Shown: one piece after another, positions 40,346 through 46,428 of the stretch
How positions within the stretch are numbered: the stretch's first letter is position 1
How the letters are laid out: each line of letters begins with the position of its first letter
Notes under the pieces: generated by a model
What the model was told of the DNA's origin: nothing
What the model saw: the letters and a program-made list of their open reading frames with translations, nothing else
The model's database searches: none
DNA from: Naegleria gruberi
Lineage: Eukaryota
Strand: one strand, 5' to 3'
DNA: 56,452 nt
Assembly (NCBI GenBank): GCA_000004985.1
Contig: GG738938.1
Position numbers and translations under genes: made by a program

Positions 40346-40620
40346 TAAGGAAACTTAAGATCTTTCTTATCCTATTGTCCCTGCAAAAAAATAAAGTGGA
40401 TGGTTGTTTAGTGTTTTTGTTTTTTAAGAAACTCCTTAAAGATTTATTAAGCTGATACAATAATTTTAATAAATCCAACTAAAAATGCAGGGAGATTTTT
40501 CAAGTGGATTAATTATTTTTAATAAAACCATCCTTAATTATCACGTGCCCACTTATAAATATTTATAATGGGGGAATGGTGTTGTGAGGTGTTAATGAGA
40601 TAAATTATAACCATTTTTTA

Positions 40621-41437
40621 TTAAAGACACAATAATTTCATTCCTGGATGAACCATAGTTACATTTATACCATTTCCATTGTCAACTTTAATTACTGGAA
40701 TAACATTAAATGTTTCTTTAAATTTGGAAATATTATTTGTTTCCACATTTAAGTAATAAAGTTGACCATTTTGTTTGTTTTTGAAATAGGCATACTCTTT
40801 AGTTTCAACAATAAAAAACAAATCATTTGGGGATTTAGTATATTTAAAACCATTTAGTTTTTGAATATTAGTATCAACATGATTTAAATAATTATTATAT
40901 GTACTTGTTAAGTCAATAAATTCTAATGCTGTTTGGTTTGAATTATGATTTTTATAGAAAGCAATAATATTCTTATTTAAACTTTCAAAACCAAATAAAG
41001 TATTTGCAAATAATGGACCATGTGTTCTAAAAGTATAACCAAAATGTAAAAGTAAATGTGTTTTTGTGATACAATATTTCTCACCATAAAAACGTTTAAA
41101 CCATATAAAAAAGGCAATCAAATTATTTTCACATATAGTAACTCCTTGATTATTTAAAGGAAAATGTAATAAATAAATACTTTTGAGAAATATAGAAATA
41201 TATTTATATTCCTCATTTGAAATAACATTTTCTAATAAACTAGAAAAATAAAAGAAAAATATTAACCATTCTTTTGCTTTTAAATAAGCAAAATGCTTCT
41301 CAAATGATCTAGGTTTAAATTTAACCCAAGAAGGAAGTTTTTGTTGTAACCATTTTTCATCTATTTTTTTAAGAAATTGTTTATCTTTAGTTGACCATAT
41401 TTTAAATAATTGAATAAAATATCCTAAACATAAAGTA
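40621..41437 (-). CDS. C-terminal part of the TnpD-like transposase (DUF4218-like region), continuous open frame from the 50-N gap to a TAA stop at 40621
   Basis: Hand translation of the minus strand from the gap edge gives an uninterrupted frame. It reads TLCLGYFIQLFKIWSTKDKQFLKKIDEKWLQQKLPSWVKFKPRSFEKHFAYLKAKEWLIFFFYFSSLLENVISNEEYKYISIFLKSIYLLHFPLNNQGVTICENNLIAFFIWFKRFYGEKYCITKTHLLLHFGYTFRTHGPLFANTLFGFESLNK.... The HL..H(x6-7)GP(x5)F.FE motif matches the DUF4218 core of plant and fungal TnpD proteins (HLPIHL....GPV...WMYPFER). The ORF track shows only the 40621..41121 part because it requires a start codon. Confidence 0.55.
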
Positions 41438-41487
41438 NNNNNNNNNNNNNNNNNNNNNNNNNNNNNNNNNNNNNNNNNNNNNNNNNN
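41438..41487. other. 50-N scaffold gap inside the transposase gene
   Basis: The N run sits between two same-strand open frames that both belong to TnpD-like sequence. Confidence 0.99.
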
Positions 41488-42812
41488 ATGGAAGAATTAT
41501 TTAATTGTAAATGAGGAATAATAGTTGAATAATAATTAGTATCTCTTAAGTTTTTTGATATTTTTGTTGAAGTGTAAATTATTTTAGCTTTTTTCTTATT
41601 ATTTTTAATATATCCAAATGGTTTCCCATAAATTTTACAAATATGGCAACAATAATATCCACCATGACCTTTTATACAAAATATTTTAGATCTAGCAGGT
41701 AAATCAAATATTCCTCTAATAACATAAAATTTAGATAGTTGATTATTAATTTGAATTCCATTATGAATATTTTGTATTTCAGTTACAACAGAATCCCATA
41801 ATTCAAAAGAATCAATTAATTCATTAGGAACTAAATGAGTTAGTAAAATATTTTGAATTTGGAATCTTTGGGTACTTTTTAATTCATTAAAAGAATACAT
41901 TATTGGCCATATTGAAAATTGGGAGGTTTTAAAAATTTTTACACCATCTGAATTTAATGTTAATGTAAAGTGTTTTCCAGTTTTGGTTAAATAATTAAAT
42001 TGTTTATAATGATTTCCTTTATATATATCATCAATTAATAATTCATTAGTATTATTTGATTGGATTAAATTAGAATAATATTTTAGTTTTTCAGTAAAAT
42101 TCTTAGATTTAAATTTTGATTTAATTAAATCTTCTAATTTTCTTTCAAAAAAGTATTTCTTTTTATCTAATTGTTTTTTACATTTACATTCACTATAACA
42201 ATTATTTGTTACAAATTTACATGTTGTACAATAATACATTTTATAAAAAGGAATATCAATATCAATATTTTCAAAAAAACTTTTGAAATTGTTTGCATGT
42301 TCTAAATTATATTCTTTAATAATATTATAAATAGTATTAATTAATGATGTAGTCATGTTTTTAGAAAGTTTTGACGTAACAATTAAATTTAATGTATCCA
42401 TTATTTTGCTATCTAAAGATTCTTTTGGTAAAGAAGGAAGTTGTTTGTTAATATAATTATTAATTACAATAGAATCAGTTAGATTATTTAAATCATTTTC
42501 AGAAAATTCATTTTCTTCATCACTATTATCTGAATCTGAATTTGATAATTCAGATTCAGATATACTAATTTCACTTTCACAATCACTTTCAATTGAATAA
42601 TAATTATCATCATCACAATATTCATCCTCACTATGTTGATGACAATTACAATTAGTATGATAATTATTACATCCATAATTTTCATTATGTCCTAAATTAT
42701 CCAATCCACCAATTTCTAAATTATTAATTTGTTGTGAAGGATTATAATGTTCATAAAGTGCCTCAAATATTGGATCCGCAATATCAATTTCATTATGTTT
42801 TCTTTTAGACAT
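41488..42812 (-). CDS. N-terminal part of a CACTA/En-Spm TnpD-like transposase (Transposase_21 / tnp2 family); ATG at 42812
   Basis: The translation contains FTLTLNSDGVKIFKTSQFSIWPIMYSFNELKSTQRFQIQNILLTHLVP. This matches the DG(F)NPF..S..S.WPV....YNLPP..R......L..LIPGP core of Transposase_21. It is followed by IRGIFDLPARSKIFCIKGHGGYYCCHICKIYG, matching the INDFPAYG.LSGWST.G..ACP.C block. The N-terminus is Cys-rich (YCTTCKFVTNNCYSECKCKK), like the transposase-associated zinc-finger region, and there is an acidic Ser/Asp/Glu stretch. The 475-codon ORF lies in roughly 22% GC DNA, where stop codons are frequent, so it is clearly coding. Confidence 0.65.
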
Positions 42813-42829
42813 TTTATTGAATATAAAAA

Positions 42830-45250: not shown

Positions 45251-45399
45251 GATAAAAAATGAAAAAATGAATTGATATTGTGGTTATTTTTTACTCATTA
45301 TTTATTACATCAGTTACATATTTTCGCGCCAATTATTTCCTCAATTATTTCAAAAAAAACAACACGATTACATTATGAATTTATGAGGTAGTTAATTAC

Positions 45400-45710
45400 A
45401 TTATTAACATTATTAACATTCAATATACTATCAACATATTTTAATACTATTTCGGAATAAATATAACTACTATCATCGATCCTATCATCACATAATAGTA
45501 AGTAACAACCTACCATAATTAAATACATTCATCTTATTTGAAAACAATTACTATTATTACTTTATAATAATAAGAACAATATTAAATAACTATAAGTATT
45601 TAAATAATTATACTATCATATCTTAATAATTTATTATACTGTCGGAGCCATTTATGTTTTACACTACTATCATTAGTATTAATAGTAAGTAACAATCATT
45701 AACAACAATA
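45400..45710. repeat. extremely AT-rich spacer with internal direct repeats
   Basis: ttattaacat occurs twice in tandem at about 45401-45420. ACTACTATCAT...ATAGTAAGTAACAA occurs at 45466-45510 and again at 45661-45698, about 196 bp apart, with indels. Confidence 0.35.
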
Positions 45711-46134
45711 CTTTTAAATATAATTATAAATAATATTAGAATATAATTGATTAATTATTAAATAAGTGTATTATTAATATATTAAATAATTATGATACTA
45801 ATAGTATATCTATTAAAACAATCTAACTAGTAAGTATTTATTTAATAATTACCTGTATCATTAAATATTAGTATCCGAATAATACAAAGCTGTTATTAAA
45901 TATCAATTTATCATTAAACCAACAACAGTAGGTATTAATTTATTATGTCTACTGTATTAATCAAAAATAATTTTAATCAATTATCCATGTCTTAACTTAC
46001 CTTCAAGCTAATTGGATACTCATATAGAGGCGGTATATAATAATTGCATTTGTCATAGTTGACCAAATTTTCAACTTGTAAAAATTTTAATAAATTTAAG
46101 TCTTTCTTTAAATCAAAAAAACCTTTAATAAACC

Positions 46135-46232
46135 GATTTAATTAACTCCATAAATCAGGCTTTAAATAAAACCACACAACCAAGATTTAATTAAATCCAT
46201 AAAGCAGGCTTCAAATAAAACCAAAAAACACC
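46135..46232. repeat. 49-bp tandem repeat, 2 copies at about 88% identity, plus a partial third
   Basis: gatttaattaactccataaatcaggctttaaataaaaccacacaaccaa at 46135-46183 is followed by gatttaattaaatccataaagcaggcttcaaataaaaccaaaaaacacc at 46184-46232. A related cagattaaaa duplication lies at 46351-46372. Confidence 0.45.
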
Positions 46233-46428
46233 TATTAACTCGCAAAGATTTATACGAACGTTTTTTTTTTCGGCTTTAATCAAAACAAAAAAATCTGCAA
46301 TAAAGTCAAGCAAATTTTTGACTTCAAGATTTATTTAAATCCAAAAAACTCAGATTAAAAGCAGATTAAAAAGTTGCAGGGAACAAAAAGGATCATCCTC
46401 AATAACTACCACAACAATATTGAAAAAA

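Follow-up and report, generated by a model that had tools for sequence, protein, structure and literature searches.

The DNA analysed here, referred to below as the window, is a stretch of 56,452 nucleotides from Naegleria gruberi (contig GG738938.1, assembly GCA_000004985.1), and the subject of the analysis is an island of about 6 kb (positions 40378-46382) which holds a DDE transposase gene on the minus strand and a long divergent open reading frame (ORF), designated ORF2. The island occupies the short spacer between two host genes, both on the plus strand: the stop codon of the upstream ORF is at 40345, 32 bp from the island, and the ATG of the downstream gene is at 46429, 46 bp away, which are the correct coordinates as proposed in the initial annotation of this locus. 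The share of N in the window exceeds 60%, with three long runs (3279-34053, 37905-39892, and 51695-54778) covering about 36 kb, and the motif counts given below refer to the readable, unmasked part of about 20 kb.

The base composition clearly separates the island from its surroundings. Its guanine plus cytosine (GC) content is 22.0%, compared with 32.1-35.2% in each of the unmasked flanks, and the median of 300-nt segments is 20.7% in the island versus 33.3% in the host DNA (n=251). The same difference is found at third codon positions (GC3), where the N-terminal and C-terminal parts of the transposase gene and ORF2 reach 7.5%, 11.4%, and 10.1%, respectively, against 27-35% in five host ORFs. 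A compositionally foreign island of about 6 kb, as initially suggested, is thus borne out; the objection that the GC drop might be ordinary host composition was checked as well, and every host 300-nt segment has a GC content of at least 26.7%. Three runs of exactly 50 N were found (41438-41487, 47369-47418, and 49863-49912), but the sequence is contiguous across both host-island junctions, the sole gap that concerns the island being inside it, and therefore the island is not a scaffolding artefact. The island is probably a class II DNA transposon of the CMC superfamily (CACTA/EnSpm-Mirage-Chapaev), either single or composite, and the proposal of a mobile element placed tightly between two host genes is supported.

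Transposase Gene

The transposase gene (40621-42812, minus strand), delineated from reading frames, Pfam profiles, homologues, and a structure model, encodes a DDE transposase of about 730 aa which is assigned to the CMC clade (Transposase_21/DUF1258). The ATG is located at 42812 (MSKRK...) and the stop codon at 40621, and the gene is visible as an N-terminal part (42812-41488) and a C-terminal part (41437-40621, including the stop), both with no internal stop and no intron. Between them lies the 50-N run 41438-41487, and the reading frame differs between its two sides. This run is probably a scaffold gap of undefined size because it is one of three runs of exactly 50 N; for this reason the frame change across it is uninformative, and the intactness of the gene, which had been claimed initially for the whole element, can not be asserted and that claim was not upheld.

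The direct Pfam matches are all sub-threshold. With the joined 728-aa protein the DUF1258 profile scored 28.9 bits, below the cut-off of 33.1, and Transposase_21 gave no match at E<=1, while with the N-terminal 441 aa DUF1258 reached 30.1 bits (E=4.5e-7; PF06869 gathering threshold 33.1) and Transposase_21 reached 21.5 bits (E=1.5e-4; PF02992 gathering threshold 28.6). The best-scoring Pfam model is therefore DUF1258, which is Mirage-type, ahead of Transposase_21. None of DUF4218, Transpos_assoc, and Transposase_24 was detected at E<=1 in the window proteins. The initial annotation had proposed a Transposase_21-type transposase, to be given up if no significant profile match appeared: the match at E=1.5e-4 lies under the cut-off and spares this proposal only narrowly, and the two accessory domains which it had named for searching, DUF4218 and Transpos_assoc, are both absent.

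At the level of the superfamily the assignment is supported. HMMER was run exhaustively against 1.84 billion representatives and detected 2250 homologues with E<=1e-3; 263 of these passed E<=1e-10, with a best value of 2.8e-28. In a family alignment of 42 sequences, composed of the window N-terminal part and 41 homologues, Transposase_21 was recognized by Pfam in 41 of the 42, DUF1258 in 40, and DUF4218 in 4. Residues D289, D370, C389, and C392 are invariant in this alignment, together with an N-terminal cysteine cluster C195/C198/C209/C211 (CxxC...CxC), and comparison of the C-terminal part with full-length homologues added the invariant H127, H131, G140, P141, and E151 (KTHLLLH...GPL...GFES). 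D289, D370, the C-terminal E, and the motifs C(2)C and H(3)H fit the CMCT signature (PMC12730594). Thus, it is the homologues and motifs that place the protein in the CMC family, its direct Pfam scores being sub-threshold, and the type initially proposed stands at the superfamily level; the Mirage-type model fits the protein better than Transposase_21.

An AlphaFold model built from the alignment had a mean predicted local distance difference test (pLDDT) value of 69, with core residues 130-420 at 70-97. The top four Protein Data Bank (PDB) matches of this model were RAG1 chains with E values from 2.5e-3 to 1.7e-2, namely, 3jbx_A (E=2.5e-3, probability 1.00) followed by 6dbt, 6dbu, and 6v0v, whereas Transib 6pqr and other RNase H-fold proteins scored lower. 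The structural likeness to RAG1/Transib is remote (template modelling score 0.2-0.28, about 10% identity), and a sequence-profile search of the PDB with the transposase gave no match to any chain. According to the model the transposase is predicted to be an RNase H-like DDE enzyme with the fold closest to RAG1, and this prediction agrees with the known CMC-Transib-RAG1 relationship.

Divergent Partner and Related Loci

ORF2 (42830-44848, plus strand) encodes 672 aa, so the long ORF of unknown type divergent from the transposase in the initial annotation was fully confirmed. It cannot be a chance frame because 672 open codons are found in DNA of 20% GC. The protein is an orphan and a candidate accessory protein: it has no Pfam, PHROG, or NCBIfam match, no identical product is on record elsewhere, and a search of 5.8 billion proteins, limited by the low-complexity word index, yielded no homologue. 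The single-sequence AlphaFold model of ORF2 (pLDDT 34) was unusable. The two divergent start codons are separated by a spacer of 17 bp, TTTATTGAATATAAAAA (42813-42829), and because of this distance each promoter and 5' untranslated region must overlap either the other gene or the tiny AT-rich spacer.

The two closest transposases, P0001 with 36% and P0002 with 33% identity to the window protein, are encoded on uncharacterised AT-rich contigs, L001 (Logan SRR6651926; 26% GC) and L002 (JGI Ga0399987_014575; 22% GC), respectively. A metagenome scan for further relatives with flanks yielded just two distant loci. P0001 passes the DUF1258 cut-off (38.6 bits versus 33.1) and has the same MSKRK N-terminus as the window protein, while the called product of L002 begins with MKETN. 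In each contig a divergent second ORF lies directly upstream of the transposase gene (L001 318-1658 and L002 156-1013, both on the minus strand), with spacers of 181 bp (L001) and 323 bp (L002) compared with 17 bp in the window. These two partner ORFs are mutual homologues (26-28% identity, E ~1e-17), have no Pfam or PHROG family, and show no similarity to ORF2, the profile comparison giving a probability of 0.1%. Since L001 and L002 also possess a divergent second ORF, the head-to-head layout is a feature of the lineage with a fast-evolving or replaceable partner gene.

The transposase gene of L002 contains two short GTAAGT...AG introns (2448-2514 and about 2798-2851), whereas the window copy is continuous there, and, as the L002 introns are absent at the equivalent positions, intron content varies among members of this transposase lineage. 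The L001 transposase frame shifts at about 3040-3060, near the same place as the L002 introns. In the available parts of L001 and L002 neither the GCAGGG motif nor the GC-rich module, both described below for the island, was found.

Termini and Subterminal Repeats

The left end region CCTATTGTCCCTGCAA (40371-40386) contains the inverted-repeat arm TCCCTGCAA (40378-40386), and the right terminal region (46321-46382) ends in the arm TTGCAGGGA (46374-46382). The 9-bp inverted repeat that had been taken as the boundary of the element is therefore present, but its role as boundary is less certain. A gapped alignment of the edges, ATCC-TATTG-TCCCTGCAA versus ATCCTTTTTGTTCCCTGCAA, gives 18/20 matches with two gaps, and its score is reached by 6-12% of shuffled or random window pairs (P ~0.06-0.12); only with this gapped extension does a possible AT/AT duplication appear at the outer ends. 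The candidate ends read CCCTGCAA...TTGCAGGG, and a CA..TG reading requires a shift of 5 nt inwards. The CAC...GTG or CACTA ends were also tried and rejected, since only 7-bp AT-rich chance pairs (e.g., CACTTAT/ATAAGTG) were obtained, with no duplication.

The GCAGGG/CCCTGC motif occurs five times in the readable window, always in the island (40379, 40487, 44947, 45234, and 46376), and one of these occurrences provides an alternative right end. The inner GCAGGGAC (44947-44954) is a perfect inverted match to GTCCCTGC at 40377-40384, and with 7-bp arms TCCCTGC/GCAGGGA the flanks CCTATTG (40371-40377) and CCTATGG (44954-44960) form a 6/7 direct repeat. This inner right end is as good as the outer one, and neither candidate pair shows the CA..TG ends plus 2-5-bp duplication which are typical of the CMCT clade (PMC12730594).

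These observations raise the question of a composite island, in which a 4.6-kb autonomous element (40378-44953, arms TCCCTGC/GCAGGGA) adjoins a 1.4-kb piece (44954-46382) left over from a second, related element or from some other foreign source; this piece would include the AT-rich stretch and the GC-rich module together with a solo right end. Such a structure is possible though doubtful. The inner pair equals the outer pair as an inverted repeat, the 6/7 flank repeat resembles a target-site duplication, the stop of ORF2 and the inner end are only ~100 bp apart, so that the element would be compact, the same-orientation GCAGGG at 44947, 45234, and 46376 suggests more than one right end, and nothing corresponding to the GC-rich module is found in L001 and L002. 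However, a 7-bp duplication is atypical of the CMCT clade (2-5 bp, PMC12730594), and a 6/7 flank match is expected by chance in about 0.3% of cases per pair tested, several pairs having been tested; moreover, it is the outer pair that extends to the gapped match of 18/20 described above. The right-hand 1.1 kb at 20% GC differs from the host no less than the ORFs do, and the right segment carries the subterminal motifs of the left end, hence it belongs to the same sequence family.

The subterminal motifs themselves were identified by shared 9-mers and local alignment. At the left end they form a repeat family (40434-40530). Its first part, 40434-40493, repeats the right terminal ~60 nt in direct orientation and contains TGCAGGGA at 40486-40493, and 40440-40477 and 40493-40530 form an internal pair of 38-nt repeats; the local alignment of the left and right subterminal regions has a score of 31 (P=0.024 versus shuffles). 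At the right side a tandem array (46135-46230) with a period of 24-25 nt (49-nt double unit) and the repeat GATTTAATTAAATCCATAAAnCAGGCTTyAAATAAAACCA was detected by Tandem Repeats Finder with a score of 89; over 46135-46227 its copies have 72% matches. These subterminal repeats are plausible transposase-binding sites.

Non-Coding Part of the Island

The right part of the island contains no long frame; a GC-rich module is followed there by an AT-rich stretch. The GC-rich module (44920-45245, about 48% GC), recognized in the GC profile, has stops in all six frames, is bracketed by GCAGGG at 44947 and 45234, and contains a perfect 12-bp inverted repeat, GAGTACTATTCA (44968-44979) and TGAATAGTACTC (45040-45051). 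The initial annotation had described it as RNA-like, and the possibility of a functional role, as a gene for a non-coding RNA or as cis-regulatory cargo, draws on its 48% GC within a 20% GC element, its lack of coding capacity, the GCAGGG motif on both sides, and the 12-bp stem. Against this, its folding is no better than that of shuffled sequences (z-scores 0.01 and 0.44 for the two strands), no Rfam family matched over 6.7 kb at E<=1, a search over 441 nt at E<=10 gave only three chance-level matches far below the gathering scores (best E=0.18), and the module is absent from L001 and L002. Such a function is accordingly very unlikely, and what stands of the earlier description is a GC-rich module with no ORF. 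The tRNA scan around the module found no tRNA, and no match to it was obtained by plasmid BLAST or by exact 19-21-mers in prokaryote genomes and viral contigs.

The AT-rich stretch that follows (45250-46130, about 20% GC) has a longest open frame of 51 codons; some motifs are weakly repeated in two copies, one example being ACTACTATCAT...TAATAGTAAGTAACAA near 45465 and 45662. The structured AT-rich repeats of the initial annotation are therefore real in the form of the 24-25-nt tandem array and these few two-copy motifs but are modest in extent. A scan of the right non-coding part for promoters and terminators of bacterial type, a method unsuited to a eukaryote, found no more sites than in shuffles.

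Left Boundary

The upstream host gene provides a link to a second genome. Its visible 150-aa C-terminus is 59% identical to a predicted Naegleria gruberi protein and 100% identical to a protein on L003, a metagenome contig of 1121 nt (ENA ERZ929261) from another sample. L003 matches the window with 99.2% identity over 39893-40371, including 26 nt past the stop codon, and then diverges fully to enter a different gene (MSLNDNTSS..., MSLNDNTSSATDNNNN...) which is absent from the readable window. The gene order of two near-identical genomes thus differs exactly at the left edge of the island. It is speculative that recombination between two element copies moved the flanks, but this event would explain the missing target-site duplication. 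In the empty-site search two other contigs, L004 and L005, were not syntenic. In L003 the 8-mer CCTATTGT, found 21 nt further on, is the same as that preceding CCCTGCAA in the window.

The difference at the left edge bears on two further explanations of the island. The first of these regards the element as no longer active: either a single-copy relic, immobilised or in decay, or two genes undergoing domestication by the host. The absence of a recognisable target-site duplication at the outer ends, the weak terminal inverted repeat, the frame change across the 50-N gap, and the lack of an identical ORF2 product on record elsewhere are in line with it. On the other hand, the two reading frames stay open for 2.0 and 2.1 kb at 20% GC, where stops are expected about every 10 codons, and the catalytic and motif residues are all kept; GC3 of about 10% versus about 30% in the host indicates no amelioration towards the host, and it is exactly at this edge that the structure of a 99%-identical genome departs from that of the window. 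A relic is for these reasons quite unlikely.

The second explanation, integrated viral or other foreign DNA with a transposase gene or a misassembled contaminant, is extremely improbable. The composition does resemble that of AT-rich giant viruses or protists, the scaffold gap lies within the island, and L003 diverges at the left border; but the island has only two ORFs, neither with a viral hallmark, and a scan of 2.9 million viral contigs with subfamily-specific patterns retrieved nothing related to the transposase. Both junctions are contiguous rather than placed across a gap, and inverted motifs at the edges with shared subterminal repeats are expected of a transposon.

Interpretation of the Element

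As a CMC transposon the island would move by a cut-and-paste mechanism, in which the transposase would bind the subterminal motifs AGATTTAtt...TAAATCC...TGCAGGGA found at both ends, cut at the CCCTGCA/TGCAGGG ends, and reinsert the element elsewhere. We infer by analogy that ORF2 may be an accessory DNA-binding or architectural protein with a role similar to that of En/Spm TnpA, to which it would be analogous and not homologous. The very low GC3 together with the open reading frames suggests that the element may have arrived recently by horizontal transfer from a more AT-rich genome. With the upstream gene 32 bp away and the downstream gene 46 bp away, it may interfere with the 3' end of the former and with the promoter of the latter.

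Several observations weigh against this explanation of the island. The window transposase is under both curated Pfam cut-offs and crosses the 50-N gap with a frame change, so that it may be broken, and ORF2 has no detectable kin, its positional counterparts in L001 and L002 included. The termini are candidates from one copy of the element; the terminal inverted repeat is not significant alone (P=0.06-0.12), no direct repeat was found at the outer ends as a 2-5-bp target-site duplication, and the candidate ends do not possess the clade-typical 5'-CA..TG-3' termini (PMC12730594). The subterminal repeats of the two ends are direct and not inverted. Finally, the tail of L003 does not match either of the two candidate right flanks and so is not a clean empty site.

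An extended form of the CMC interpretation unites the window element with L001 and L002 in a CMC lineage that has not been described before, belongs to very AT-rich protists, and would be defined by an obligatory head-to-head, fast-evolving accessory gene and non-CA/TG ends (CCCTGCA...TGCAGGG). One member of this lineage, with a GC-rich non-coding segment as cargo, would have passed recently into a Naegleria genome by horizontal transfer, where it would now lie at the breakpoint of a strain-specific rearrangement. In this complete form the proposal is unlikely.

Comparison with Known Systems

The window element is an ordinary one, of a known kind and not a new class, because CMC-EnSpm elements are already annotated in Naegleria and two-protein CACTA elements, such as En/Spm with its TnpA and TnpD, are classical. 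The initial statement that this architecture had not been described goes too far in view of both facts and of the layout shared with L001 and L002. To our knowledge, Naegleria transposons have been catalogued only automatically. In N. lovaniensis CMC-EnSpm is the largest annotated class of DNA transposons, with 38 fragments totalling 69.8 kb (PMC6125883, Table 3), while Naegleria genomes are repeat-poor with 2.5-5% of repeats (PMC6125883).

One of the closest systems is CMC-EnSpm, with which the window element has in common a Transposase_21-homologous (TnpD-type) DDE transposase, a second gene, subterminal motifs, and the same host genus. The differences concern the ends, which are CAC(TA)...(TA)GTG in CMC-EnSpm and CCCTGCA...TGCAGGG as candidates in the window, the target-site duplication of 2-3 bp, which is not seen here, and the second protein, which in CMC-EnSpm is TnpA-like and derives from the same transcription unit, whereas ORF2 has no Transposase_24 match and is divergent at a distance of 17 bp. 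Also, unlike CMC-EnSpm, the window transposase has no DUF4218 or Transpos_assoc and its Pfam score is under the gathering threshold. An element of plant-type CACTA (En/Spm) in the strict sense was rejected, as neither CACTA termini nor matches to Transposase_24, DUF4218, or Transpos_assoc were found.

Mirage belongs to the same CMC clade, and DUF1258, which represents the Mirage group and is a close relative of Transposase_21/CACTA (PMC3985635), is the best model for the window protein (30.1 bits), yet sub-threshold. Mirage elements are those of nematodes and other animals, while the window element resides in a heterolobosean protist and has an additional large ORF. The DDE core of the window transposase, like that of Transib/RAG1 (3jbx, 6dbt, 6pqr), is surrounded by C(2)C and H(3-4)H motifs (PMC12730594), but the window element shows no heptamer or nonamer ends similar to recombination signal sequences.

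The peculiarities of the element are thus its unusual candidate termini, the orphan divergent partner, the GC-rich non-coding insert, and the foreign codon usage. No new mechanism is revealed by it. As a CMC element that is seemingly young and of full length and that differs from the host in codon usage, it is a useful reference for annotation of the family and may exemplify recent horizontal transfer into a heterolobosean; since it lies less than 50 bp from two genes, at a place where 99%-identical genomes differ, it is maybe relevant to strain-level rearrangement.

Neighbouring Genes

For the exact product of the host ORF 48031-49602 (plus strand) no record was found. This ORF and the two other host ORFs at 34918-36297 (minus strand) and 49966-51693 (plus strand) are long and have no Pfam family; one of the three is S/T/N/Q-rich and of low complexity, and two are multi-pass membrane-like.

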